DNA of 64,000 nt from assembly GCA_963924565.1 (NCBI GenBank), contig OZ004613.1, positions 4,588,001 through 4,652,000 of the forward strand, given 5' to 3'. Of the stretch, positions 2,677 to 30,200 are shown one piece after another (position 1 is the stretch's first letter; each line of letters begins with the position of its first letter). The stretch comes from Ascidiella aspersa (lineage: Eukaryota). The notes under the pieces were generated by a model that did no database searches, was not told the DNA's origin, and saw nothing but the letters and a program-made list of their open reading frames with translations. The translations under genes and the position numbers were made by a program.

Positions 2677-5600
2677 GGAATCTTCGAAGACATTCTTTGT
2701 GAAATGGGCGAAGCTAGAATCATTCAGTACAAAGACGCCTTCGCAAAATTTGACAAGGTTTGTCAACATGGCCGTAAAATTTGATTAAAACATAACTCAT
2801 ATTCGAGCAAAATCGTGCCCCTCAACTATTTTTAAGACTATCATACAAACAGAACAAGGTGTATCTTTAATCTTTTTGTGACTGACAGTACAAAAGTATT
2901 TAGAGTCTATACAAGGGGGACACCACTCACGAACGTTTGATTGCGCTATCCAGGGTTACCATCTGCTAAGACCAAAAAATAAGGACACTTTTGATAAGGC
3001 GGGCGGACCCAGGACTTTGTTGTGGGGAGGCATCCAAATACAATACTCTCAAAAACCTTGTTGTTAGTTATGAACCTTAAAGCAAAAGTTCAAGAAAAAA
3101 ATAGTTTTGTTAGGTTCAATTGGCGAAACTTCCGTTATGTATTTGGCCAGGGTTCACCAGTAATTGAATAATACTGTTCGAACAGTAATTGAATAATAAA
3201 TTCTGTATATTAATAGTGAACAGTATATTGAATAATAAATTCTAAAATAAGACGAACTAAACACACAACTCAAAAATAAGCACGTTTCCTAGAAATAGGC
3301 ACATTTATGTTTTCTAAGACACTGTCATCAAAAATAAGCACAAATCTGAGAAATAAGCACGGTATGGTAACCCTGGCTATTCCCTTTAAATTTTCGCAAG
3401 CACTTTGCTCTTACTCCCACTTTGCTCCTCATTCTGCGCCCTCCTCTTTCGACCAATAGGATCGCTCGACATTCACCCGCGTGTAATTATCACCAGGGAT
3501 CAATAGTTCGAACATTGTCCGTCGGTACGCGGCAAAATGTCGCTTCCCCCGCCCCTAATGCCCCAAGGCGACAAGCGTAAGTTGGCTTGAGTGATTTCGG
3601 GCGACACAATATTTCCAACGTATTGATTCCAGCGGAAACTTGTCGCTAAACAGACGAGCTTTGAATTACTTTGCCAAAGGTCAGCGGAGACGCCCTTTAA
3701 GAAGATTTTTGTATATATTTTGTTCTGAAATCCGTGTCTGGCTAAAGCTTTTAATTATTATGCGTCCGAGCGTGGCAGTAAAATACGCCAGCTTGTGTTT
3801 TAAGGCATTTGAAAGCCATATATTTATTCACTGTTCAAAACGAGTAAGGTTAAAATAAAAAATGTAACTCATTTTTTGTTAAAAATTGCATTTTAGTTCC
3901 AGGGGTTGACCTTAGCCTAAAGGCCAAGATCGAATAGCGTAAAAATCAAATTAATTTCAATATAAGGTTGTTTTAAAAGTTCGGAATCTATTCCACGTTC
4001 AAACTGATTACAGGTTAATAAGTCGGTCTCACGGGTGACCATAGGCTTTTTCACAACCCCCTTTCTGCAATACATACATAACCCCAGTTCAAATCAAAAG
4101 TAAACGTTTTGTTACTGAACACTATTGTCCAAACAAACTTCTTTCGGTTGAATACAAGTGTATTTTTATCGCTGGTAATAAAATATTCACAAGGCGATTG
4201 CTGATCGAAAACGTTCACCAATATAGCACATGGTGTCGATATCCGATAACAGATGTATTTGAACAACCAGTATCGCGGTGCGATCTAATATCAGATGACA
4301 TAATTGTGCTTAAACAAGCAAAATAGGTCAATTTGAATATTTACCTTTATCCGCAGAATTCCAATTTTAAGCTGCACAAACATATCGCCTTGCAATATCC
4401 AAAGTTTCCAATCTGGAATATTTACGTTAAGCAATGGTCAAACAAATTGTTTCGGTTCGAATAGTCAGGTGAACACTGAACATACTTGGAAACCTTAGCA
4501 CCTTTTACAACTCACTTTGAACTTTGCATTTATTCGCAGGATTCGAGTGGGATCATCAGCTCCAAGCAGCTTCGTCGTCTGCTGCGAACCTTGGGTCACA
4601 ATCCCAGCGATATTGAACTGAGGGAACTGGTCAACCAGGTCTGTACTGATTACTAGGGATTTCCGATAATGTCGATACCCGATGCAAGTTGTAGTATCGG
4701 TTAAAGTTCGATACTAGGGTTGTATCCAGTGGTGGAATTCAGCCGGTTCGCACCGGATCTATAGAACCGTCCCACGAAGGTTTTTGAGATCAGCAAACCA
4801 GTTAGCACTACTGGTTAATGTCAATGAACTTTTGCATCTTATCTATTGAATTTTGTGATAGAACCGGCTGACAAAAAAATTGAATCCCACCACTGGTTGT
4901 ATCGGCGCCGATTTGATAACAAATTAATTTAAAAAATTACAGCCACCATTTGCGATAAAGTTCAGCTATCCAACTTTAAAAGATAAATTTATTGATAAAT
5001 AGTAGCCCAGACTAACAACCGAAAGTAACTTAACTTTTTTAGAACTTTTCAACGCAAAGCAAATTTTACCCTAATAGCCTTGAAAAATACATTTAAAGGT
5101 TTAAATTTCATTTATTTTGCTTGTTTGACCATAGTAATGACGTCATTTGGTACCGGATCGCGATATTTTTCCTCCCAAATATCGGGTATCGTTGTCGGAA
5201 TAAAATGTCAAGTATCGACAACCCTACTGGTGACGTACGATAATATCGGATCGGTGCCGATACCCTAAGCTAAATGGTAGTATCGGTACAAGTTTGATGC
5301 TAGGATGTTATGCGTGTCGAGCAGCAAATAGCAAGAAAATATTTAATATTCAAAAGATGGGATAGATTTAACATTAAATTTATTTTTATGCATCTTTGCA
5401 AACATTGAAAATAAGATAGCATAAAATAACACAAGGACAGCGAAAGGGCTTTACGTTCAACGAGTAGATCTGCCCACGGATAAATAACTAACTTTATTAA
5501 AAGTATTTCATAAAAACACTTAATTTTAAAGTCGAGTAATTTTGCCCGAAAGACTTAAATTAAATCAAGTCAAGTTGTGGACAACAGAGACTTAATTGCA

Positions 5601-8600
5601 CTAAAGTCAAGTCAAGGACTTAAGTCATTACAACCCTGTCCACTGCGGTCGGAAAACCAAGTAAATCTACATACTACATTATTCTTATACAGGTCGACAT
5701 GGATGAGAATGGAAAGATTGACTTCAACGAGTTTATCATCATGATTGGATAGTGAGTTGAAAATTGTTTTGTTTTTTAGCTCAGTTCCACCCGCAAATTA
5801 TGGAAATAATATGGGCTTTACAAGCATCCTGAAGTATTTACATTTTTCGTCACTCGCCAGAGTATTTCAAAACGCGAAATTTTCTGTCTAAACTTTTTCA
5901 TCCCATTATTACATTTGGGTAAACAAAATTTACTCCAAAATTTAATGAATTGTAAACTAAGTTAATGTCTTTCCCAAAAACCAAAACATATTTAAAACCA
6001 AATATTTTTCGATTTTTCTTGTAATAATAAACCTTTTTTTTAAACAAAACTGCGCAACAGTAGGAATATTAATTTCATCTATATGAATATATCTGTCGCG
6101 TACCTATGGGACTCGTTTTATAAGACCTGCAGAGTATTAATTTCACGCTTTTAAACGCCTTGCCTTTAAAAGGATGACAAACGAGCAATAACGACTATCG
6201 ATGTGACCGCAGGGAACAGGTAAATTGCCGATACAATGTTGCGGCTATAAAACTACCAGCGCCAAAGTCAACATTCCAAGGGACAAATTATCCCCTAATT
6301 CCAATCTTCTAAGTAGGCTTAGCGGGAACCTTAAAGGCTTAGCTTGAAGCGACGGGGGAGTTTTGTAAGCTGTAACCTGAAGGGCATAGGACGAAGAAAC
6401 GCGGTTTCAATTGGGAAACTTGATCGCTATTCATCAGCTTAGGATTTAATAAAGACGAATGGTTATAGGAAGCTCATTTAGTAGAGTGCTTGAGCCAGGG
6501 AACGTGAGACGAAACTCACCTGTGGGGGAGAATGCTTAGGCGTAAATCTACTAGCCACGCTGTTCTCAAACTGAGAAAGTTTCCAAGGGTTCGCAGAGAA
6601 TCTTTTAATAAAGAATATCTAAATTGATTTGGTCTCATTATAATGTTAATGATTTACATTTCTCGTACAGTTTTTTTTTATATTTTATCTTGGTTATGTT
6701 TTTTTTTCACCAGTCCAGCCCACCATCTCTTTAAACGTATTAGGATTTCAGTTTGCGTATTGGTGAACTGAATGGAGCGATAACCTTAGTTTTCCTACGG
6801 TCACTTGTATTACGTAACTTGGTCGGTAAAAAAAATCCGTCTACTTTTCGGTAAAAATCATTTTAGATTCGAAATCATTCTACTTTTAGGTAAAAATTCG
6901 TTCTACTTAAACCTCTGATATCAAGTGATTCAAAGTTCTTCTAATCAAAACCCTCCCAAAGGATCCTCACATCCATTTAAAACAAAGCGACAAAAACAAA
7001 AATATGTCCGTCCTTGAAATGCCTCCTTCTCGCAAGTCCATTACAGCAGCGCAAACTTTTGCAGCCGAGGGTGCTTTCCCGCCCACCTTTGGCCGGTGTT
7101 GCTTGCGGTGCAGACAGTTATTATTGTATCAAATATTCATTCCTGGGACGCAACCTTCCGCCAAAAGGAAAGGATCAATAATTCATAAGCCGGGAAAGTC
7201 TTTACCGTTTGTTTTGTTTACAGCCCCTGAGTTTTCCAGATCGGAGGAAAATTACTTTCCCGGTGTTGGCGCCAACTTCTCGAGTGCAATAAAGTCCCCG
7301 GGGTTTAGGGCGCCGCTATTAAGGGGCGATTAGGGGGCTAGACTCCCCCATGTCAGACTTGGAAAACTAGACAATTTTAGTTTGGTACACTATGCACGGA
7401 TCTCTAATGTCTTAATCAAGATGCTGTCGATTTACTCGACCTTTTTGGCTTTGCAATTCATTATCTAGATAATTTTTGTTTTCTAATTCTATGAATTATA
7501 GCAAAATGCGACTAATTCTAGTTCTAATCTAATTTGGGTTTTACCAAAAATGATATTTTGTCCAATGGCATTTTTTATTCTGTCTGTCAAAACAAAGAAC
7601 TTCATTTAAAATGTAGTTAATTTTACATTCAGCAACTGCTAAACAGTATAGAAGTTGGGACTAACATATTTACAACATTCTTTTTAGAATAATTTGTGGT
7701 TTAAATTAAATTGATTGTAAACAATTATATGTAATTCCAGTTAAAATTCTAGGCAAAATTTGTCTTTTTAGAAATTCGGTTCCAATTCTTATCTAATTTG
7801 ATAAAACTTAAATATTCCAATTCTAATTCCAATTTTAATTTATAAAAGCCAACATAAAATATAGTTGTCTACGTCTGCCCCCCTAAAATTGCTCTTCCGG
7901 CAATTATTTTTTTATTAAATATACCGCCGTTTCGTTATCATTTCCCTGATGAATATTCCCTGCATAGGTTATCGAAACGTCATATATTAATTAAAAATGA
8001 ATTGCCGAAAGGACAGTTTTACAGTTGATGCACTGCCTGGCTGCGACAGGGTGTTTATTCGTTTACCAACTATGATATTTTAGAAATAACGATTTCACAG
8101 AACTTTTTTTTCGGATTTTTGCCTTTTTTACCGTAACATGAAAAGATGGTTGATAAAAAGTTAAATCTAAACCGTTACGGTTAACGTATAAAAGAACTGT
8201 TAATTGACCTGAAAATGTGTTAAAAGCTTGAGAAGCGCACCGCTCCGAACAAAAATCAGTCAGCAAAGTTCTAAAACTTTTAATACAAATATGCATTTCG
8301 CCATATAATTGGCATCATCAGTTTGTCTGTACAAATATATAGTAAAAAATTAAAATATTAAAATGTTAAATAAAACAAAATTATTAAAAATTTTAGAACT
8401 TTGATCGTCGGCATGATGTGTTCTGTTGAGGCAAGATTCTGTTGTGAATACACATACTAAGCTTATAGCATGTGTTAATTGGAATTTATTAAGTTGTTAA
8501 AATGTTATCCTCTTGAAGAATATTTTCAGTACGGTACCCTGAATATTGATCCGACAAGGCGTGAATATCTGACCTTTGAGAGAACCGTGACTAAAACCTT

Positions 8601-11222
8601 ATCTTCGTTTCGGATCTAAAGGCGCTAATTTTAGTGCCTAAACTTTTAAAAGACTGTTTTCACATCCCTTAGGGTTTACTCCCAAGAGATGGCGCGGTGT
8701 TCCAAAAAAGCAATCACTCATCCTTTAAATATAGTCGGGTGCGGCTTGAGTGTATGTGACTAACTTCGGTGTCGTTACATCGTCTTCTTTTCCTGTTAAT
8801 TTTGTCCTTTTTTCTTTTGTGCGTGTTTTGACGTTTTTATCTTCACTTGTATTTTCACACTGATTATGGCATGAGGTATTGCCGAAACGTTTGTAACAGC
8901 GAAATGTCGATTTTATCGAATAGGCCTATAATGACTTTAATATTTTTATTAAAATCGGTTTGTTGATTTGGCATTTTTTACTACAGGGGTGTCCAAACTA
9001 GGGCCCGCGTGGTAAATTTGACAGCCCTCGCATCCCTCGGAATTTCCCCTAGTGAGATAAAATATATTTGAAATGTTGTCGGATGCATTTACAAACTTAA
9101 GTTGTTTGATTTTTTTCAACGACAAATTCCCAAAAGCTTAGTAGCCTACAGTCTTTTGTAAAATAAAAGTTATAAACAGTTTTACTTTCTAAGAGTTATA
9201 AAAAACTACTACATATAAAAGCAATCGTTCGTAGTTTTTTTTTTATAATATTCTGCAACAAAACCTAATCAGGTCAAGTCAATATCGTTTTCTTTTTAAA
9301 AAAGTTTCCTAAATCATTATAACCACATGGAACAGAGGAGGGATGCTTAGTACTTAATGGATACTTAAAAAGTAACCTGATTCATTAAAACCTTGGAAGG
9401 GATTGTACAAATTCATTTCTTGGCAGTTTCGACAAGGCTAACAACGAAGACGAGGACTTATGCAACATCTTTCGGGTCTTCGATCGAGATGAAAAGGGAT
9501 CCATCGACGTCAACGACCTCCGCAACATCTGGAACGACTTCCTCACAGAGATGGCTCCCCTCGATGAGGTATCTTGCATTTACTTGGTTTAAATGTTACG
9601 CCAAAAATACTGTTCGTGCTTAACGGCCTGTCGCTGACCTCGTGTACGCACACAACTAAATTAGAGAACTTATTTATTGTAAACTTATATATTGTAGTGG
9701 CGCGAACGCCAACGATGGCTTTTTCTTGAGCGAATGCAGCTAGCGCGCACGCTACTAGCTTGATCCAAAAACGTGACCAACCCACACCACAACTAAAACA
9801 AGACTGCTTTCGTTCTCTCAAACGGTTTGCATCCAAAACGAAGGAATGTCCTTCTGGGCCAAAACAAAAGTGTAAAACAATGAGTGATTAGAAGTGAAAA
9901 CGCAAAGGTGTAACGGAAAGAAACGAACTGAGACAAAAAGTGAAGTGCAGTGAAGTAAATCAAATTAAACCAAGAAAATCAACAATAAATTACACAACAC
10001 AAATAGGCAAACAAACGCCTTTTTTTTGGAGGGGGGTCATACCAACGCTGCAAACCCCCTGGATCCGACCCTGGTTCCCAACCTTCCGAAGAGCTCACGT
10101 GATAAATTGCTGTGGCAATCGTCACATGGTCAGATTTATTGCTATTGCTTTGGTAAATCTTCCTACAAAATTTGAAAAAATCCAACAGCTATCGAAAGAC
10201 GAGGAGCATTTTAAATTAATTTGAATGCGCTAATGCTATTGTCCCATGGCAAACTGAATGTTTAAAATATGAAATATGTCTCCTCGCCCTTACACGATTT
10301 GCGATGAGCTTTTGTTACCAGGCGTAATACCAATCAAAAATGCGCCTTTTTCACCCGACCATTGTATATTCTTGCACAGAGCATAGAACACGGTTAAACA
10401 CTTCGAAATATGTAGACAAGGCATACTTGTTAAAAATCAGATAACTGAAAACAGGCCAGACAAAATTCCACGCGCCCGCGGCTGATTTTCCGTGTTGTTA
10501 AGTAGCAGTAACTCTACGTTGTTATCCTGATTTGGGAATATTTGATTGAAGAATTTACACTTGTAAAGTTGTAAGGCAACTTCACAATTATTTTAGAGCT
10601 TTCTTTGAAAAAGATTCCAACATTTTTTTGGATTCGCTTTTTGACCCGGCCCTCCCAAGAAATTTTGTTATTCGCGTGCAACCTCTTGTCAAAAAATGTC
10701 CACACATGCTATTGGGGAATTTTGTGTGACGCTAGTATTTGACTGACAATAAGTATAACCCCTAATTTTTTGTATTCAGGAATTTTCGCAGTTTTTATTA
10801 AAAAAGATTAAGATGTTGAAAAAAATAACCGTTTTTATTCCCAAACTTTCAAATTGGTACTTACTGATGTACGGGCTTTATATTTTACATCTTACTACAA
10901 TTTCCAGCCATTATCTTAGGATTGATTCAAAATATTTACAAAATGTTAGGCTACCTACTTCCGTCAGGGCTTTGACATTCAATCTACGTCTAACTATAAC
11001 CTCCAGAAATTATCCTGAGATTTATTCGAAAAGTTCACAAAATGTAACCTATACTTCTGCATGCGCCTTGATATTCATTCTATTGTAAAGTTCCACAAAC
11101 TGCTTCCCCCTTATACTCACGTGTTTATTTTCTAGTTCGAGGAAATGATCAAGTTTATCGACGACGATGGTAACGGGGAAATCAACCGAGTCGAGTTACT
11201 CGAGATGCTGAGTACGAGATGA
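2677..11222 (+). CDS. Calmodulin-like four-EF-hand protein; exons 2677-2757, 4540-4638, 5693-5751, 9427-9568, 11136-11222 (5' end unresolved)
   Basis: All exons have AG/GT boundaries and compatible phases (0,0,2,0). Spliced translation: GIFEDILCEMGEARIIQYKDAFAKFDKDSSGIISSKQLRRLLRTLGHNPSDIELRELVNQVDMDENGKIDFNEFIIMIGYFDKANNEDEDLCNIFRVFDRDEKGSIDVNDLRNIWNDFLTEMAPLDEFEEMIKFIDDDGNGEINRVELLEMLSTR*. It shows four EF-hand loops with calmodulin spacing and an LGxNP linker. The start is either the in-exon ATG at 2704 or an upstream exon. Confidence 0.9.
4654..5226. mobile_element. TAGGG-ended MITE with CCGATA/ATCGG subterminal motifs (host of a nested MITE)
   Basis: Imperfect TIRs TAGGGATTTCCGATA / TATCGACAACCCTA; 6/8 TSD. 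Related pieces at about 28690-28766, 31560-31851, 37025-37097. Confidence 0.6.
4727..4895. mobile_element. hAT-type MITE (169 bp) nested in the element above
   Basis: 15-bp TIRs with one mismatch, CAGTGGTGGAATTCA / TGAATCCCACCACTG; perfect 8-bp TSD GTTGTATC. Confidence 0.9.
7368..7871. mobile_element. AATTCTAATT-rich MITE-like repeat; second copy at about 54335-54816
   Basis: Two dispersed similar copies; imperfect TIRs TAGACAATT / AGTTGTCTA; interrupted by a hammerhead-family retroposon fragment at 7384-7464. Confidence 0.55.
8285..8326 (-). ncRNA. Minimal Type I hammerhead ribozyme
   Basis: Minus strand ACAAA CUGAUGA U GCCA auuaua UGGC GAAA ugca UA UUUGU: intact core, paired stems I and II, palindromic stem III (AUGCAU). 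Confidence 0.8.
8854..8896 (+). ncRNA. Degenerate hammerhead (core CUGAUUA), same repeat family as 61021-61064
   Basis: About 8835-8955 aligns by eye with about 61003-61118; stem II GGCA/UGCC, GAAACGUU; G8 changed to U. Confidence 0.6.
9693..9999 (+). mobile_element. Possible solo LTR
   Basis: Begins TGTAGTG, ends CACAACA, with AATAAA just before the 3' end and an A-rich 3' half; no convincing TSD. Confidence 0.3.
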
Positions 11223-18200: not shown

Positions 18201-21200
18201 AATTGTGTAAATAACTTAATAGGCTTTGAAAAACATTTTTTAACAATAATAACTTAATCTAACCTAAACGCAAATTCTACCCAAACAAATAAAGTTATTT
18301 TAAAATTACAAAAATAATTTGTTTAATTTGCATAGATCGTGGAACAAGAAAAAAGTCTTACTAAACAGTTTCAAGTCCGTTTTTTAGCCAATAAGGAGAA
18401 ATACCAAACAATACAATATAAACCACGTGTGATTTTTGCAGACGCTATGTCATTTCATTGGAATGTCCAGCTTATGAAAGAGTAAATTCATATATGTATG
18501 CCTTAGCCCCAATATAACACTCATAACACACTTCCTGTGGCTAACATGATATTTGCCCTGGAAGTAAATGCCTTGAATCACACTTGTTGTTTTAGTTCAC
18601 TCATTTTGCCCACTTTGAGCGTATAGGCAAAAATTGGGGATATTTACCAGCTATGTAACGGTGTCCTAAGAACTAAACCTGTCATTGTTCGAAAAATGTT
18701 TAAATATAAAACTGGCATAATTCTAAAAAAGTGTCTGTAAGCTAAACATGCTTGCTTTGCATTAAGATAATAGAATTTATTATTTTAAAAAAACCAACCA
18801 GTTAAACTACAATAGTTATAAAGAAATACTATAGTTGATTAAAGTTTAACTGATAAAAACTGATGACTCCTAAGAGAGGTTGCCTTTTTTATAAGTCTGT
18901 GTTTAAACCAACTGGGGAGAGTTATGGCTATATGTATCTTATGAAAATTCTTGGAGATTCTTAGCAAGTTTTTGAATTTTTTTATTTTTTAGTGACACAT
19001 CGTACAAGCCAGGAGAGTCGCGCTACACAAAGTATGACAACCCGGGAGATTGGCAAAAAGATGGACCTATCCAACAGTCGAAAGCCATGAACAAAGCTCT
19101 CGTCAAACCATACAGAGGTGTGTGAAGCAAAAAGTGGGCTTTATTAACCTATAAAAGTCCAAGGTATTTGTCAGTATTTCTTTTTAAGAATATCTGCTGT
19201 TTAAAATTTATTTATACAAGCAATGTTGCCAGTAACTGCTTTCTGTGGGTATTGATATTTGTGTTAGCATGTTTTTTTAACTGTGTGCTGCCACATTGTA
19301 AAAATCAAGGCAATTTAAATAAAGACATAATTGAGTTTTTTAGTGATTAAGAGTGGGTGCATTTGTAAATGTTTTCCAAGGTTTGTGTTTTAAACTTATG
19401 AAATTAGGCTTCAATTAAATGTGATTTAAAAATCGTTTTTAAATGATGCACTTATATTTTTCTAACTGTGATGTCATAATGTGATCAGCGCCCATGGGAA
19501 GTGACGAAACAAAAACAGTGACGATTACTCCGGAGATCAAAGAAATGCTGGAAGAAGAAGAAAGAAGCAAAGAGGCGCCACCCGGTGGAATGAAAGCGAG
19601 TGAAATTAAAACGTGGCCGACACACGAAAACAGGTTTGTAGTTTTTACAAAGTTTAGAAAGTTTATTAAGAAATTTGCAAGCAGTTAAACTAACTAAGTT
19701 TATCAACATTAAACCTAGAACAGTAAGTCTTTTTTAAATTTGTAGATATATAGTTAAGTACTTTATGATGTGTTTTGTGTCCGTTCTTCAATTTTTATTA
19801 TTTTTTTGTACATTTGTTCTTTTGGCTAGTTTTATGAACGTGACAAAGCATCATTAATTTTATATAAATAACCAATTCATGTTGAACTAACAACCAACGG
19901 AAATTCCCATCCTGTGTGTTACAAATTGCATTAGGTTTGATTGTGTTTTACAATTCTACTAAAGACTTTCAGTTGTATTCAAAATTTCATATTAATAATT
20001 ATAATAATTATTATCATTACATCACTACATACCTCACCTATTGTGTATCATACATGAATCGTATCCCTGAAAGAAACTCTTGTAAAATTGTGACTCATAA
20101 TGAGTGACAATTACATATATAACATTTTAACACCTCACCCAAATAACTTTGGTAAATTTTAATTACTTTTTAACAGAATGACATAAAAGTAATTCTTTGA
20201 CATAATAAATCATTTGTTTCCAAAAATATCTAAAATCAGTTATACTATAAACTTGTGTCACTTAAAACTTTGGTATTAGATTTTATTACATGTTATCTCA
20301 TTTTAGTAATAAATTATTTATAGTGAATTGCATCATGTTTCCAGTGTATAGGGAGCTACTCTTACAGCAACCTGAGTGTCTGAGGACTTCTTTGACCAGA
20401 TATTTGAATGCCATTAAAACCAACTAACTAAAAGGCCAATGTCATATTTTATGTTATTGAGGGTTAGGGTAAAATTAGGCTTTTATGCATAATTTTAACC
20501 AGAAAAAAATGTCTAAATTTTGTTTAAAAGAGTTGTTTAAAAGTAATTCTTAAATTGTTAAACTGATCTTAACATAATAATTACTTTCATTTCAGTTGTT
20601 TTTGATGATTCAGTAAATAATTTTTGTTTTACATTAATTAGATTGTAATTTCCAAATTATTTTGCTCTAAAATGTTTTTAAACCATTGCATGGCTTTTAT
20701 AATTAACTTCATTATTCTATTACATCATTTGTGGATGCCACACTTGTTGTTAAGTGCCACTAGGGTGTTATTCACCAGCCAATCAAATATCAAGAACATG
20801 GGACTTTTAACAGTTTGTCTTGGCTGTTTAGTGTGAGATACTTGCCTTGTTTGTTTTACACACATGTCATTCCCCTAGCCACCATGGAATGTACTTTGTT
20901 GTGCCGCTCAGCCAAGAGCTCTCAATGCCCCCGATTGTTTGCATTCCAGAGTCGTTGTTTTGCTATTGTGATGTCACAATACACTGGCAGTGAATGGGCT
21001 CTCAGTGGGCAATTATAGTACTTCTGTGCTTGGGACAAGTTGTAGTAAATCAGCCTGAAACATTGTCATTGTGGGAATTTATTAAAATACATTACAACAT
21101 TCTTGTGGTGAAATTTAACTTCTGAGCATTCCCCTTGGCACTATGACAAACTTAAGTGTAAATTTTTAAGTTTTAAATAAATGGGCTTTGATTGTCTAAG

Positions 21201-24200
21201 TTGAAATATTGAAGCCCCCATATAAAGAAGTAACTTTTGAACTTGTCTTGTAACTCTTTATTCATTTTTAACACGGATAAAGTCATGAAACTATAAAATG
21301 TTCCCTCCTTCATCTGGTCTTTGATGTTCCTACGCTAGCTAGACCTCCAACCATTACGCTATTAAGGCTTTATATTGCTGTAATCGTTCCTAAAAAAAAA
21401 AGATTTTTTTTAAAGTTTTTCTAAAGATATCTTGGTATATATTTAGTACAGTAGGTGTTTATATTCGTTGTGCAAACTTAGTGTTGACATTTGGATTATT
21501 CAACTTTATTTTCTTTTTATTTGGCAAGATAAAAACATTTTTGAACAAACTGGAAAATGGTTTTACCTTTAAATTGGTCTAATACAATTTATATACTTTT
21601 TTTTATATAGTTGTAAGGCACATAAGTAAATTAAAGTAATTTCCTTTTTCCTAATGAACAGGTAATATTAAATAAAACTTAATATATAATTCAGGCCATA
21701 AAGTGTTAGACGTCTGTGCACTAATAAAAAAAACATGATGGTTGTTGTAATATAATTTTTTTTACATTTTTAACATACTATTGATTTTTTGACATGTACA
21801 ACATGGAAAATTAACTTATTACATTTTACTAGACAGCTAGACCGTGTGTTTGATTTAGTAGTTCCACGACAAACGGTGTTTCACCACAACCCCCCGCCCA
21901 AGTTGAGAATGGCGAACGAAGCAAAGCTGTCGGCAACATCAGCAAGTTCTTTCAAGGCTCCGCCGCACCGAGATACGGTGAACCTACTTTTGCAAAGGTA
22001 AGAATTCCCTTAATTACGAATGTCAAAGCCAAAAAGGTCGATTAAATCAACATCATCTTGATAAAGATACTTCGATAACCACTTGTAGAATCATCAGCAT
22101 TGCGTTCCACCTTTTATAAGAGGTTTGCATATATTTTAGTCGCATTAACTGATGATGATCGAATGCAAAAATGTCTTTATCAAGTGTATGTTGATTTACT
22201 CAACATTTTTGTGTAATGACAGTCATATTTTAGATACATAACAGATCTGTACATAGTGTACCTCAGAAATCCACTTGTTTTCAACAAAGTATCTTAAAAG
22301 CTGACTGAAAACTAATGGATCCGATCCGATACTGAAGTCTTTATCAGTGTACACGTACAGGAATTTATTAAAACACGTAAAGGCTTAAACAAGTGGATTC
22401 CTTAATTCGAATGAATCCAATACAAAACAATGTTTTAAACAGAAACAGAATCAGTAAGTTAAACATCATTGCCAAACACTTACAAGTAACTAACAACACG
22501 AGCTCCTACCGCGACAAGGTAGTAACACCAACTGCCGTAAGGACAACTACAATGTCAAGGCACCATGTGCTCAGTGACCTTTGACCGCAAGTCATAGAAT
22601 GATCACACAATTAAATAGGTCATAAAGTACTTACATAAAAATGCGGTTTAGCAAGCTCACTGTTAATCTTAACAAACTCACTGTTATTTTTTTCTTAAAA
22701 AAGTGAATCGCAACGAATAGAAAGATTAACGAACACTCGGCAATGTATAGCAAACGCAAGAATAGAAACATAACAGTCCGTCCCAACACCAACTCATTTA
22801 CTGCGTTGATGTGACACGCACAATAGGGGCCGTCAGTACAGCAATGCACCTTGGCTCCCTCATATACCATCACAGCAACCGATCAACCTCAAGTTGACAG
22901 GACGTAAAGTAAGAACCCGATGATATGTTGACGAACTCATCTGTCGCTCGACGACCACCGTACTTATATCATCTGGGCGAAGCATCCAGCCATTGGATAT
23001 ATTTCCTTTTACCTTCTTGCATTCTTTACACGCGTTGAAGTAATATCGATTCCGCTCATCATTGGAGAGATGTGGACATTCACCACAGTCTTCGTACTGC
23101 GCTGCATCTGTGATTTTACTGATTACACGCACAACTCGTTTAGTGTGCTCTTTACTACGTTCGCTAACCTTAGGTACCACTCTTACTGGGCACGACGATC
23201 TGGCCAAATTGCCAGGGCTTTTCCATTTCTTCCGACCATGGAAGTGGTTGTCACCAGGGTTGTGTCTCCTCGGGATAACACCAACACAGTAGTGACCACT
23301 CGACGACAAAAACAGTTCAACGTCTTTGTTGAACATTGTTGCTCGACCACGAGCAAGATCAAGTACAGCACCTGCTTTCTGGAGTGACGACCTGCTAAGT
23401 AACAGAGGCAAGTCGTTCTTGACGACAGAAACGTCAATGCTGCACAATTTTCCACCAACACAAGCAGGAATTAGGGCTTGGGATTTGGAAATGACTTTCT
23501 TTCCGTCACCAAACTTAAAAACTGTACGCGAAGGAGTGATTTTAACGTCACGTTTATACTTGGAATGTAAATTGAATAAATAATTTCGCAGCCACCGTTC
23601 ACCACAGACAGTTTTCGAACAAGCAGCGTCTATAACTGCCGACTTGTAGGTTTCAGCTACGCAGCTGTTGGTAACACTTGAAAATAGCACAATGTTGACT
23701 TCACCGTCTGAAACATCATTAGTAGACGTATTACAACTTTTGTGAGGACATTTTGCCGCCCAATGCATTTTAGAATCACATATGACGCATCTAGATATTT
23801 TCCCAAACTTATCAATAGGATTGAACTTTCTTTTATCAAAACCTTTTCGATGTATTGGATTACTGGCTACGTAAGATTCTTCTTTGACGTCAATATATTG
23901 TGACAGTTTATCAGAAATTGGGCTTTCAGTAAATATGCGTTTTAGAGCAGACTTCATGGATTCAAACCTAAGATCACTTGCAAATGTCAAAGCCAATTGT
24001 CGTTCTTTAGAAGTTAAATTTGCGCCATCCAACAGTTTAAAAGAAAGAATTGTATCTGGCAATTCCATCTCGTGAAACGTCATCTTATGCGATAAATGTT
24101 CAAACTCTAAAATGTAGTCAATCATCGTCATATCAGTACTTTTATCAAACCTTGTAAACTTGGTGTATGTAGAGTACGCATCATCTACAGACTCCGTCTT

Positions 24201-27200
24201 AAACGCTGCATCGAGTTTTCCAATCAACGTGGACATTCCACTCTCTGCGTGTAGTTCCTCGCGCGTTAATTGCGAAACAGCCTTTTCCGCTTTCGAGTTG
24301 CCCTCTAGGCTCTCCAGTAGAACAATAATTGCTTGTTCTTTCTTGACGACGCCCGTGACAAGCTGCCACATTTGTACCTTGTTTTTCCATGCAGAATAAG
24401 GCAAGTCGTCTTTAAACTTTGGTGGAGATCTCTTTGCACTTGTTGCCATCTTGTGTGTTTACAGCTGGTTTCCTGTAACCATCCTCTGCTACCATGAAAA
24501 CTAATGGATCCGATCCGATACTGAAGTCTTTATCAGTGTACACGTACAGGAATTTATTAAAACACGTAAAGGCTTAAACAAGTGGATTCCTTAATTCGAA
24601 TGAATCCAATACAAAACAATGTTTTAAACAGAAACAGAATCAGTAAGTTAAACATCATTGCCAAACACTTACAAGTAACTAACAACACGAGCTCCTACCG
24701 CGACAAGGTAGTAACACCAACTGCCGTAAGGACAACTACAATGTCAAGGCACCATGTGCTCAGTGACCTTTGACCGCAAGTCATAGAATGATCACACAAT
24801 TAAATAGGTCATAAAGTACTTACATAAAAATGCGGTTTAGCAAGCTCACTGTTAATCTTAACACTGACAATATTTAAAAATTCAAGTATATGTTTGTTTT
24901 TGTGTCAATTTAATTTTGAAAATTGATATTGTTGTTTTCTTTAGGCCTTACCCTTTTAATACATTTCAGTAACAGCTAAGGGGGTTTGAGTTATATTTAA
25001 AGACTTCTTTTTTTATAAATTGTCTTACTATGATTGATTAAAAGCATTGTATTTTGCCCCATGGCCATTTGTGGTCTCTTATGCTTTCAAAAGACATTAG
25101 TTTTGTTTAAATCTGTTTATTTTCAAATTTCGTCGGTGTCATAGTAACATGGTATTTAAGCTTACAACGGTTATCTAAATTTTAGCTATATTTTGCAGTA
25201 TATGGGTTAAAGGTTTTAGACATATTATGTTGTCAAAGTTCATGTAAAACTTTAAAATGCCCACTTCTCTAATTCTGTATGGGCTTTTATATTAGTTTGT
25301 CAAAATGGTAACAATGGCATAATAATTGATTTATTTTAGTTTGTAACGGGGTGACTTGGTAAAAGTAAGAGCCACAACCTATACATTTGCCCTAAATAAA
25401 TGTCACCCCATTCTATACATATACCTTTGCTCAGCTAGGTTCCTTCCAGCAGTTTAACAGCTACGTAATTGGTTAGGCTATTTTCGAGTCACTAGTTATT
25501 TACACTAGAAGATTTGCTAAATAAATGCAATCACTCTGCTGAAGCTCCTAAAATCTATTTACTTATACGATCATCAATGATAGGTTATGAGTTTAATCCG
25601 CAATATTAACAACTTATACCAGAGGTCAGCAACTCGATCCCCACTTAAAATTATTGAGCGTGTTGCCTATTTTACCAACTGGTCCATGAGGCTATTACCC
25701 ACATTTTTGTATAGGTAACTATTAACAATACTTCCATTGTAACTTAGTATGTTAGAATTTTTTTCATTGCAATTCGCACAAATTCGTTTCGTGTTTAAAC
25801 ATGAACATAACATAGAGAGTTTAACGGCCCGCAAATTACCCCAGAAACTATTGATTATAGTGAAAAATTATCGTGTTTAAGTTTTTTATTACACCATTTT
25901 AATAAGAGTATTGATAAAGCCTTATAGACTTCAAGTTAAAACAAATAAATACAATTATTTTTGGGATTTAAAACACTTTCTAAGTGAATGTCATTAAACC
26001 TATTTTCCATTACAAACAAAACTCTATGTCCGCCTCTCATTAACTGTTGGTAGGATTAAAAGCCCGAAAACTACACGTTTTAACTACAACATTGCCAATT
26101 CAAATGTTTTACGGCCCACCAAAAGGTTCTGAGTTTTGGTTTTTCCTGCGTCTAGGAAAATATTGCGACTAAAAACATTATTGGAACGCTTGAGGATGTT
26201 TTAAAGAGAACCTTAACTGTCGTTGCAAAAAAATAAGTTTATCAGCGCATTTCTTTCGAAAACGAAATGAACACACCCAGTCTGTGCTTAATGAAAGGCG
26301 TCTAGAAATGTAAGGATATTATATAATAAGATCACCCGAATAAAATATCAACCGACAAAATCGCTTTTCTAGTGTAAACGAACTTATATATTGACGTTCA
26401 GCACACCGCCGATCTTAAACAGCTGTGGGCTGGTTATTTCTGGCCTATGCATAACCACAATACAACAATACACGTATGATATTTTCACCCAGGAATTGAA
26501 GGACATTTATTCCCCCCTTGGTGACCCTGCTGTACTTGAGATACGACTTGGTTCAAATATGCCCACCCCCACCGTACATTGGTATCACAACAACAGGCCC
26601 GCCAGGGAATCAAAGGACAAAGACATACGCTTCTTAAGCAACGGTAAGTCGTGTTTTATACTTGCTGCTTGAACGCTTTCTAACAAATTGTCGTTGTTCA
26701 GTTGTTATCAATGTTCGTCTTTTTTTAGTAGTAGATGTTTTTATTTTAGGGCACAATTTAAAACTTACACCATAAATTCCTTAGTTTAACTGGAATACCT
26801 TTTAAACCACTGCCGTTTTGACTTAGTTTATTTTTCACACATATAACTTGTTCAACAATAAATAATTGTCGGAAGAACCCTCTTTATAATAATAGATAAT
26901 TGTCGGAAGAACCCTCTTTATAATTAATATAATGCCTGGCAGCAACACTATATTCATATAACTTTTATTATTTTTTTTTAAGTTACAAAGCAACTTAAAC
27001 GTTTCCTAAACTTTCAATTCTCTATTAAAAAAACATTACACCGACTTCTTGAATTTTAATTTTGAAGATGTCATATTAACCAATCAAACTAGAATTAATT
27101 TAGAAGAGTTCATTAAATTCCCAATAAGATGCACACAAAAGTGGACCTCTGAAATTGTCCGACATAAACATTAATACAAAACCTTCTATCAAATCCAAAA

Positions 27201-30200
27201 AAATGTGTTATACTAAAAATCCCTTCTAAAAAGGTGTTACTCTAAATCGTATAACACCATGTTAATTTCATGGAACTTTCAGGTCCCGTCCACACAGTTG
27301 TGCTTGGTGAGCTTTCCAATGAGCTACTGGGAACTTACACCTGCACCATTATGAACAAGTATGGGTCAAAATCTTGCAGATGCAAAGTTGCCATCAAGAA
27401 TGACGGCGAACATGTAAGAAGCCAGTTTTTTTATTTTATTATATTCTGTAATGTGGGATGTATTGTTCCCTTGTACTTAAAATCATATTTATTACCGTGA
27501 CTTTGTAGTTTTATAATAAAAGAGTTAACTTATTTTCAATTTTGTAAATTGTTAATATCATGCCCGAATTATAGTTGTTATATTTCTCCGCAATTTTTTT
27601 TCAATAATATTTATAAACATAAAAATTTACGAAAATTTGAAGCAGCATTTCGCATTTAGCCGTTTTTTTATTAGTAAGGACATCGATGGGCTTTGCTTGT
27701 ATACCGGTACAATTTTAACCCTTACCCTCTTCCTATTAAATTTCTGAACAATGCAAATATCCATTCTGAAATTTTGAAAAGCATTTTTAGCGCTTTCTTA
27801 TCAGCAAAAACTTTTAGTTCTACAGTTTTCGTGTTTTCGAATATCAAAATTAAAACCGGATTTTATGCCCCTATTTTTTTTCTCTTTGCTTTTGGTTTTA
27901 TGAATTAAATGACCAAAGTTCTTTTTCAAATAAAATGACCCCCTATTTTTGTTTTGACTCCCGATTTTTGTTTTTTCTACTCCCGATTTTCCTTTTTCAA
28001 ACACCCCTATATTTTCTTTTTTGTGACCCCCTAATTTTTCTGGCAGCAACCGAAGCCCACCCCCAGCTATGCGCCCCCTGGTGTCAAGGATGCAAAGAAA
28101 GTGATCCCAAGCACTTCGTTGGGTCTCTACTCCGCCCAGAACGCCCAGCAGTCATACCAAGGACAAATTAAGTCGAATTCATCGAGGTTTGTGCGAAGTT
28201 TGAGTCTGTGAAACAAAATAAGGATTTGTTAGTCCATTTCTAGAAAGGCAGTTGTTGTGCTCTTGACATTTTATCATGTTACCGATACCCTATGATTTAG
28301 AATTTAGACAGTAAGGAAAAAAACAAGAAATTGAAACGTTCAAAAAGTATTTTTAGGTTAGTGGGCCAAATTTTACTTTATACATCAGAAGTTTGGTTAC
28401 TTCCAGTTGTTGAGATGTGTTAAATAGATGCAATCACTTCTAAATATATTAACTTGATTCTACCATAAATGATAGGTTATAAGTCGGATCCGGCAAATAT
28501 TGACAACTTAACCCAGGGGTCGGCAAACTCTGCATCTCTTCCAAACTGGGTCATGAGGCTATTCCCCACGTTAGTTACTTCCTGTTGTTAACTTAAAAAT
28601 TTACCCTTTAAGGGTATAATCCCTGCATTGGATCGCCAAATATGTCTGACATTTGTGTGTTAAACTGGTATCAGATGGACGCCCATACGACTCTAGTATC
28701 AGACGTGTACCGATACTACTACTTCGCATCGAGTGTCGTCACCGATCCGATATTATCGGCATCCCTATTACTAGTTGCACAGCAAACGTTTCACAGCTTA
28801 TTTCGGCCGTACAACATTTTTTAATAATTGGGTCGCCGCCCAAAACGGTTGAAAAACACTGATCTATTTCACCTTTAGGAATGCATAAAAACGCTTTTTA
28901 AAGTTAGTAGTAGTTTTGTTAGTTTGCCGGAGAATGTGGGTTCAATAAACGATAGAAAAACACAGTCTCATATAGATTTGTCACCTAACCACCAACTCAC
29001 ACATAACATTAAACTCAATAATTATGTTTGCAAGTTTCACAACTGATCTCCGCAAAGAACAAAAACGAAGTGAAAGGCTTTTTCATATTTGATTTGTGAT
29101 GCTAAACCCGAAATAATCGTGTGGCCATATCTTGATTCAAATTTAGTTTGCTGAAAATCAAACTGTATTTAAAAAGTATTTTTGACTTCTGCTTTTGATA
29201 CATAAATACTTTTGTTTATGTATTGCTTGGCAGAAATCACTTTTAACGCTGTACATTGTGTAACCGTGGCGTGTTCTGAAAACGGTTATGTTGGTTATAT
29301 TACAATGACTCATTCCCCGAATTTAGCAACGCTTGTATATACTTCCAGTAACACAGGAAGTAGTTTTACACCCACGTATTATCTCACAAAGTACAACAAA
29401 GCGTTGCCTTACATGGAAACAACCCTCAAATAAATTATTCCTGTAAATAACATTAACACCATTTTACTTTTCAATAGTATGCAAAGAATTAAGTAAACAT
29501 GGCGTTTGTTGTAAAACACACAATACTTGAAGTCAATGTATTAATTGGGTTTCTTTTTAATTGCAAGTATCTAATCTTATCTTAAGGTTTCCATTTGAAA
29601 TAAGATACTTAAATGCTCGCAAAGAATGAAACATATTTACCGTATACCTTCTAAACCAGTGGTTCTCAACCTTCGTGGCCAATTTCGTTGTACAAAAATT
29701 CTGTGGCCCAAAAAATTTTTATGAAAGAACAAACTATAAAAAGGTTTAGAACAAAATATAGCGAAGCGTATAACAATAAATTTACATTCCTACTCAATTC
29801 CTCCCCAAGCCATTATTCCTGTAAAATTAGGTATAGTGACAAATGAAACTAAATTCTTTAATAAATCCAGCTTTTTTTTAATTGGTCTGTGGCCCATCTA
29901 AAAAGTTTCCATGGCCCACCAATGAGCCATGGCCTACTGGTTGATAACCGCTGTTCTAAGCAAAGTGATCTACAGTTCCAAGCCTTGTACTTATAGTTTA
30001 ATATATTTGACGTGCAACCAGAAAAAATGTTTTTTTTACCATTTTTCTTTTATTAAAACAAAAAATATTTTTGCCCATCCAAATTACACGAAAAGCCGTT
30101 TTAAAAACTTCAGGCACATTATTTTATTCAAAAGAAAAAATATTTAAAACTGTTCGAAATGCAATTTTCAGCATATTTCCGTCAGGCTGAACGCTAATAT

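Follow-up and report, generated by a model that had tools for sequence, protein, structure and literature searches.

A Pol-less Gag-protease family of GalEa-type Copia elements in Ascidiella aspersa and its likely autonomous partner

How does a retrotransposon spread when it encodes neither integrase nor reverse transcriptase (RT)? This question is raised by an element at 22306-24863, on the minus strand, of a 64,000-nucleotide stretch of Ascidiella aspersa DNA (GenBank assembly GCA_963924565.1, contig OZ004613.1, positions 4,588,001 to 4,652,000), hereafter the window. We refer to this element as the window copy, to its family as the Gag-protease family and to the other family members as sister copies. 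Our reading, to which we give a probability of roughly 70%, is that the window copy was inserted recently and belongs to a long-lived GalEa-type family that is non-autonomous and encodes only capsid, nucleocapsid and protease, and that RT and integrase would be supplied in mixed particles by an autonomous GalEa family, most likely the sister family A described below.

The window copy is 2,558 bp long, and all its parts are read on the minus strand. Its long terminal repeats (LTRs) of 369 bp each, the 5' LTR at 24495-24863 and the 3' LTR at 22306-22674, have the ends TGTTAA...TTTTCA and show no difference (0/369) when aligned. They are flanked by the 5-bp target-site duplication (TSD) CTGAC, at 22301-22305 on the left and 24864-24868 on the right. 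An 18-nt primer-binding site (PBS) for initiator methionine tRNA (tRNA-iMet) adjoins the 5' LTR at 24477-24494 and pairs without mismatch with the 3'-terminal 18 nt of a tRNA-Met(CAT) gene located elsewhere in the same genome. A single open reading frame (ORF) at 22860-24449 encodes 529 aa, compared with 527 aa in most intact sister copies; a 2-nt insertion near 22965, absent from 157 of 185 raw reads, alters its last ~35 aa. It is followed by a 3' untranslated region (22697-22859), in which no Pol remnant was detected, and by an A-rich polypurine-tract (PPT)-like signal (22675-22696) that ends in GAGTT ahead of the 3' LTR and resembles those of families A and C. The first-pass annotation of this DNA, made from the letters alone, had described identical LTRs, a perfect TSD, an 18-nt PBS and an uninterrupted 529-codon ORF, and all were found as claimed. 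Its GalEa-like assignment agrees with the TGT...CA ends, the 5-bp TSD, the tRNA-Met PBS and the C2C4H4C knuckle.

The ORF gave no significant match to Pfam, so that domain calls rest on homologues and on the predicted fold. A model of the ORF was built on a 55-row alignment. Its residues 6-180 resemble the Drosophila Copia capsid (Z 11.0, root-mean-square deviation 5.2, 163 residues aligned) and its residues 268-385 resemble retropepsins (Z 9.9, root-mean-square deviation 2.5, 102 residues aligned). The predicted capsid domain occupies 23910-24449 and the retropepsin-type protease domain 23280-23651, with its catalytic Asp codon at 23628-23630. A nucleocapsid zinc knuckle, C-x2-C-x4-H-x4-C, lies at 23748-23789 and is found in 21/21 two-LTR copies. 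The remainder, a family-specific C-terminal tail of ~135-139 aa (22860-23279), is modelled with low confidence, residues 401-529 being mostly below 50 in predicted local distance difference test (pLDDT) score. Homologues of the ORF come from ascidian, fish, mollusc and coral records, the best named one being from Styela clava (49%). None of 82 homologues from other species was recognisable as a Gag-protease-tail protein; two of them (P0045 and P0075) have long non-Pol ends after the protease or early integrase. As the annotation had stated, no integrase, RT or RNase H was detected in the window copy, either by Pfam or by a Pol profile of 39 natural proteins searched against the six frames of 7 copies, where the best hit had an E value of 0.13 and lay on the antisense strand.

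The same structure recurs across the genome. DNA searches scored the best 40 of about 460 candidates, and copy counts are therefore lower bounds: at least 21 two-LTR copies with the same Pol-less layout and tail lie on 8 contigs of the 308.6-Mb genome, which bears out the expectation of other copies with this internal structure at other sites. Eighteen of the 21 have their own 5-bp TSD in distinct flanks; of the three without, two form a duplicated pair that ends in a T-run and the third has its LTR interrupted by an insertion. LTRs are identical in 7/21 copies and the ORF reaches at least 525 aa in 10/21. Truncated, nested and internally deleted copies also occur, together with solo LTRs, a TSD being present at 8 of the 9 examined. 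In raw DNA reads of another individual, the mean depth of 194 over the internal region, against 6.2 over unique flank, corresponds to about 30 copies. Older copies that have this tail and belong to this LTR type are 68-78% identical, solo LTRs 77-87%, and these older same-tail copies hold 3-6 stops. The window copy is thus young and the Gag-protease family old, and the description "very young" holds for the copy (0/369 LTR differences) but not for the family. The window copy differs at 48 sites from its nearest assembled sister despite identical LTRs, and its source copies are therefore unsampled.

Codon models were fitted to 20 copies, one of the duplicated pair being dropped and stops and frame breaks treated as gaps. 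They revealed a gradient of the nonsynonymous to synonymous rate ratio (omega) along the ORF. On a fixed tree and on each region's own tree, respectively, omega was 0.23 and 0.27 in the capsid, with twice the log-likelihood difference from omega 1 (2dL) at 66 and 48; 0.32 and 0.38 in the nucleocapsid; 0.52 and 0.48 in the protease; and 0.85 and 0.90 in the tail, where 2dL was below 1. Segregating sites by codon position numbered 23/15/50 in the capsid (third positions 50/88, p 5e-6) and 18/21/21 in the tail (third positions 21/60). The capsid is thus under purifying selection, the nucleocapsid and protease are under weaker selection and the tail is neutral; a dN/dS analysis of gag had been proposed in the first-pass annotation. 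Region-specific trees fit far better than a single tree, showing that the copies are mosaic. Three copies (L017, L018 and L020) form a subfamily ~9% diverged, at three separate sites with their own TSDs; they have common stops in gag at codons 61 and 249, and the LTRs of L020 are shortened to 185 bp. Without these three (n=17), omega was 0.26 in the capsid, 0.39 in the nucleocapsid, 0.41 in the protease and 0.96 in the tail. Of the 21 copies, 14 have the protease motif DTAC and four, located at three sites, have DIAC; the window copy has DAAC, and two are unmatched. Judging from HIV protease, the position that follows the catalytic Asp would be important to the retropepsin dimer.

The tail yielded no match in the databases or the Atlas, the protein database search spanning proteins of 290-926 aa only. 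A conserved zinc-binding domain (CxxCxH...CxxC) was ruled out by its omega of 0.85-0.96, its pLDDT below 50 and this lack of matches. An integrase remnant, or the out-of-frame end of a spliced RNA, was unsupported (best E 0.10 by tblastx, 0.13 with the Pol profile), although long drift could conceal such an origin.

We then come to the source of the missing enzymes. An RT search of the genome, in which 40/40 candidates were scored, gave 38 matches in 29 loci, all of which were inspected. They sort into three families: A (4.94 kb, 298-bp LTR), B (4.97 kb, 398-bp LTR) and C (4.94 kb, 334-bp LTR), the placing of one locus (L094) in C relying only on the length of its LTR and the identity of its RT. 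All three families include copies in which the LTRs are identical and a Gag-Pol frame of 1,392-1,428 aa, with integrase ahead of RT, is open. The LTR of the Gag-protease family, like its gag, was on 0/29 of these RT-bearing loci, decayed ones included. The PBS, PPT features and termini are common to the Gag-protease family and to A, B and C. The genome holds 53 exact 18-nt PBS matches (control 1), of which 25 adjoin a Gag-protease family LTR, 11 belong to A, 7 to B and 6 to C-like elements; the others are 2 chimeras, 1 tRNA gene and 1 divergent LTR remnant. The Gag-protease family thus outnumbers each autonomous family and accounts for about half of the GalEa PBS sites of the genome. A Gag-protease tree (quick search, 42 of the 55 rows, those of at least 330 aa) places it as sister to A with SH-aLRT support of 97 and branch lengths of 0.37 and 0.30. 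The two are 64-74% identical in gag-protease DNA, synonymous sites are saturated (proportion of synonymous differences, pS, 0.74-0.86) and the present LTR does not align with that of A beyond short motifs. The element is therefore not a recent deletion of any element present, since no RT locus has its LTR and the split from A is saturated. A full-length partner with the same LTR and PBS had been anticipated: the PBS is indeed common to A, B and C, whereas the LTR is not, and the likely partner, A, is a distant one.

Two decayed copies, L078 and L080, connect the two lineages. In both, the leader, gag, protease and tail of the Gag-protease family (84-94% identical) stand between family-A-type LTRs, which are 82-88% identical to A LTRs in L078 and 81-86% in L080. 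In capsid and protease DNA they match the Gag-protease family at 87-94% identity but A at 63-74%. A TSD of its own, AAAGC, flanks L078. In L080 the 5' end is missing, and the junction shows an incomplete PBS and then a complete one. LTRs so close to those of A cannot date from the split of the lineages and must have been exchanged after it. The switch points sit at the PPT and the PBS, as expected if one RNA of each family were copied in one particle, and recombination during reverse transcription has been described as a mechanism for such exchange (PMC6894440). The chimeras would then be a trace of co-packaging with family A, as far as two copies can tell. Reads that link the PBS to the end of a family-A LTR (13 in run X22 and one contig in run X3) were not counted as modern chimeras, as they may derive from A itself.

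Reads from other individuals suggest that the insertion site is polymorphic, as the first-pass annotation had supposed. The window copy has 8 alleles that are present in none of 20 sister copies. In run X22 (DNA, another individual), the window base was seen in 0/209 reads at 23158 and in at most 1/181 at 23627, whereas about 6 reads would be expected if the insertion were homozygous and 3 if heterozygous; at the other private sites the non-majority reads numbered 3-5 at most, except for one site with up to 13/138. In run X1, a 701-nt contig matches the left flank to exactly 22305, while its other 249 letters were not placed on the LTR. These data suggest that the site is empty in the X22 and X1 samples, seen at the site itself from its left flank only. 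In run X3, which bears a different organism label (organism B), the internal region was recovered as contigs with few differences (window 21000-24494), reflecting a relative or a labelling difference. The RNA evidence comes from one raw run, X23, in which the internal region had a mean depth of 17.4 against 7.9 by first-mate strand (2.2:1), and unique flank 0 against 0.5. This bias fits sense transcription if the library, whose strandedness is not on record, is of the dUTP type.

We propose that the RNA of the element is packaged into mixed particles in which an autonomous GalEa family, most likely A, would provide RT and integrase. The tRNA-iMet PBS, a similar PPT, similar LTR ends (TGTTAA...TTTCA) and a shared U5 motif may be sufficient for the enzymes of the partner. 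A Gag of its own is probably an advantage to the family in that it would package the family's RNA best; the Gag and protease of a sibling or partner could stand in for it. Template switching at the PPT and PBS, in a particle holding one RNA of each family, is the probable origin of the copies with A-type LTRs. Family A is the likeliest rather than a proven helper, because B and C also share the PBS, termini and PPT features. The earlier proposal that the element builds its own capsid and borrows Pol is thus largely sustained: the capsid is under purifying selection, while capsid building itself is deduced, and copies with a stopped gag or altered protease have inserted as well.

Several observations weigh against this proposal. 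Families B and C are also active, with the same PBS and termini, and the assembly represents one haplotype, so that a segregating autonomous parent could be missing from it. The protease codon-position test was not significant (third positions 26/64, p 0.14), most of the private changes that the 11 youngest copies carry outside the capsid are nonsynonymous, and mosaic copies can bias omega. The stop-sharing gag (L017, L018 and L020) and the DIAC copies are inserted at several sites, so there is no strict requirement for an element's own Gag and protease in cis, and these would be used at least partly in trans. There are only two chimeras, both decayed, and L080 is without a recoverable 5' end or TSD; as the present LTR is unalignable to that of A, they record past contact with A rather than today's partner. 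The RNA level per copy in X23 (depth about 25 over about 30 copies) is near the host-intron background (0.5).

A possible, if unlikely, alternative keeps the same non-autonomous family and changes its helper, which would be B, C or a segregating autonomous parent with this LTR, absent from the assembly. Copies whose LTRs are identical and whose frames are open exist in both B and C. The LTR-PBS joint is spacer-free in B as in the Gag-protease family, unlike in A and C, which have a spacer, and C has TGTTAAG and a U5 motif in common with the family. Both chimeras found, however, bear A-type LTRs. For a missing parent speak the unsampled source copies implied by the 48 sites noted above; against it, none of the 29 RT loci preserves a fossil of such an element, and the raw reads of another individual show even depth from gag through the protease to the tail, and none of the loose-end peaks listed falls where the protease ends.

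A bolder version of the mixed-particle proposal would see here an animal retrotransposon made of two parts, in which an old Gag-protease lineage outlived its own parent, has its own LTR promoter, outnumbers its helpers, co-assembles with a ~64%-identical Gag-Pol, swaps LTRs with it and supplies Gag to single-ORF GalEa elements. We regard this full combination as doubtful.

It is improbable that the ORF is a bystander, the element moving as RNA cargo and the selection signal being inherited from an autonomous past or from recombination. Sublineages with a dead Gag or an altered protease did insert at new sites, and the 135-codon tail is open yet neutral, so that an open frame alone proves little. 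But omega was estimated within the family, after the loss of Pol, and differs by domain (capsid 0.26 against tail 0.96 in 17 copies), and the 3-6 stops of old same-tail copies contrast with the 10/21 young copies that are open. There is equally little to be expected, or slightly less, from the idea that the family's Gag acts on other elements, either supplying excess Gag to single-ORF GalEa elements (mutualism) or interfering with the capsids of the partner, as truncated Ty1 Gag does. Extra Gag is required by Copia elements with a single ORF, for which several solutions are described (PMC5580714), and a cooperative role has been proposed for wheat Sabrina and WHAM (PMC9744471). The family outnumbers each autonomous family, and the Ty1 restriction factor Drt2 is among the capsid fold matches, which speaks to fold only. 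Yet the copies are dispersed, mobile and polymorphic rather than one fixed host gene, and selection on the capsid is equally explained by packaging of the family's own RNA. A one-off deletion after insertion or an assembly collapse, both raised by the first-pass annotation, can be dismissed, as the layout and tail are common to 21 copies at independent sites and raw reads cover the internal region from end to end at about 30-fold the depth of the flank.

Other loci carry decayed or rearranged derivatives of these families. L083 holds at 3184-4217 a single 1,034-bp derivative resembling a terminal-repeat retrotransposon in miniature (TRIM), with both LTRs, most of the ORF deleted and no TSD. 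L100 (648-1035) and L104 consist of an LTR and only 18 (or 16) nt of PBS, followed by unrelated DNA with no TSD seen; they could be plus-strand strong-stop products or deletions. L103 (640-1060; G000:C7:25639-26059) is a lone divergent LTR remnant with a PBS near a contig start, 80-88% identical in patches to the family LTR. All three were considered as autonomous parents and rejected, as no coding match follows their PBS. One copy (L077, 1406-7230) contains a nested 5.8-kb element that is bounded by short terminal inverted repeats (CCCAGTC...GACTGGG), has two frames, of 425 and 324 aa, and resembles animal CMC/EnSpm transposons; this locus is duplicated about 123 kb away. A hidden Pol in this insert was rejected for lack of Copia Pol similarity. 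A family-A copy in L067 is bounded by a 1,354-bp direct repeat that starts with the LTR (130-1483 and 5832-7185, 98.8% identical). L099 (1-6701; G000:C3:6129200-6135900) is a tandem tRNA array of 33 genes in 6.7 kb (His, Gln, Met), in which one tRNA-Met gene is followed by a genomic CCA.

Within the window, the element lies antisense in a host intron at 21998-26492 (plus strand), predicted from splice signals rather than spliced reads. The predicted flanking exons (one ending at 21997, then 26493-26643 and 27283-27413) encode an in-frame immunoglobulin I-set domain. About 100 bp to the left of the insertion, at 22030-22211, is an imperfect inverted repeat with 43-nt arms (81%); its raw DNA depth of 220-460, against about 6, marks a high-copy repeat resembling a miniature inverted-repeat transposable element. 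An exon-sized frame at 9389-9589 (plus strand) has an EF-hand motif (Pfam E 1e-5).

GalEa elements have been found in tunicates (PMC11889832). The metazoan elements GalEa1, CoRex1-2, Zeco1 and Cico1 (PMC5445492, PMC3587641), as described there, resemble the Gag-protease family in their TGT...CA LTRs, 5-bp TSD, LTR-adjacent tRNA-Met PBS, C2C4H4C knuckle and, in broad form, DT(G/A)C-type protease motif, and the candidate partners A-C likewise place integrase before RT. The published GalEa PBS, TGGTAGCAGAG(C), also lies directly after the 5' LTR and has the same first 11 nt; the 12th base is G here, matching the host tRNA, so that the site ends in GAGG instead of GAGC. The signatures listed in PMC5445492 are DTG(C/A) for the protease, HHCC and DD35E for integrase, KARLVA and YVDD for RT, and TRPDI and ADxxTK for RNase H. 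Family A carries KARLVA, YVDD and ADxxTK, with TRPDV where the list has TRPDI. The DTAC of 14/21 Gag-protease copies, which also occurs in families A-C and most database homologues, and the DAAC of the window copy are not literally the published protease motif. The Gag-protease element measures 2.56 kb against about 4.9 kb for metazoan GalEa elements, and a family-specific tail replaces integrase, RT and RNase H. As the signatures of these three enzymes are absent, we consider the element a GalEa-derived non-autonomous one and not a canonical member.

Among animals, the mammalian MaLR elements and the deletion derivatives ETn/IAP are Pol-less LTR elements needing a helper; MaLR keeps a Gag-related ORF, and all are of the retroviral class, not Copia. 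A 2010 study reportedly described a non-autonomous internal region between the LTRs of its partner. That case, like our chimeras, is explained by recombination during reverse transcription (mechanism in PMC6894440); unlike it, the families here are saturated at synonymous sites, only two decayed chimeras exist and it is the lineage with an LTR of its own that thrives. No non-autonomous GalEa element or animal Gag-only Copia element is described in the literature searched, which lies outside subscription papers, supplements and Repbase/Dfam; in the text available, the word "autonomous" occurs nowhere in PMC11889832 and once, in a reference, in PMC3587641.

Plants provide the closer parallels. 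The terminal-repeat elements with a Gag, TR-GAG (Chaparro 2015; PMC4350172), and the 28 GAG/PROT families of sugar beet (PMC13570524) are similarly shorter than 4 kb, with LTR, PBS, PPT, a 5-bp TSD and one ORF; they are transcribed, and often no similar autonomous element is present in the genome. The Gag-protease family likewise is below 4 kb, has LTR, PBS and PPT, at least 2 copies and a single ORF. TR-GAG elements are, however, defined by Gag similarity without an aspartic protease, whereas the animal family keeps a protease under some selection, and it is therefore not TR-GAG in the strict sense. It also differs from TRIM elements and large retrotransposon derivatives (LARD; PMC4350172, PMC6934838), described as without coding capacity, in its 525-529-aa ORF open in 10/21 copies.

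The nearest design is that of wheat RLG_Sabrina_SA. This element and RLG_WHAM, of wheat and barley, are termed "semi-autonomous" GAG-Pro elements (PMC9744471), and together with RLG_Quinta (PMC11302176) they share an intact Gag(-protease) ORF, the lack of Pol and a long co-existence with a diverged autonomous partner. They are plant Gypsy elements, of 8 kb in Sabrina_SA, with thousands of copies, compared with an animal Copia element of 2.6 kb and about 30 copies. Unlike in Sabrina_SA-type elements, the current LTR is not shared with the partner, and only two old copies have a whole LTR like that of A. The Gag-protease semi-autonomous design is thus already known from plants, and what is added here is an animal Copia case that dominates its helpers and has its own LTR, together with a relict of LTR exchange with a sister family from which it is deeply diverged and a clear selection gradient. 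RT-based surveys would miss such families, which here hold about half of the GalEa primer sites of the genome. One parasite and three candidate helpers, with a probable trace of co-packaging and a selection gradient in one ORF, make a small and tractable system in which to ask what a retained Gag is for, as it could benefit the parasite's own RNA or either help or restrict the partner, and how far two Gags can diverge before they no longer enter the same particle. It extends the semi-autonomous Gag-protease design from plants to animal Copia elements.

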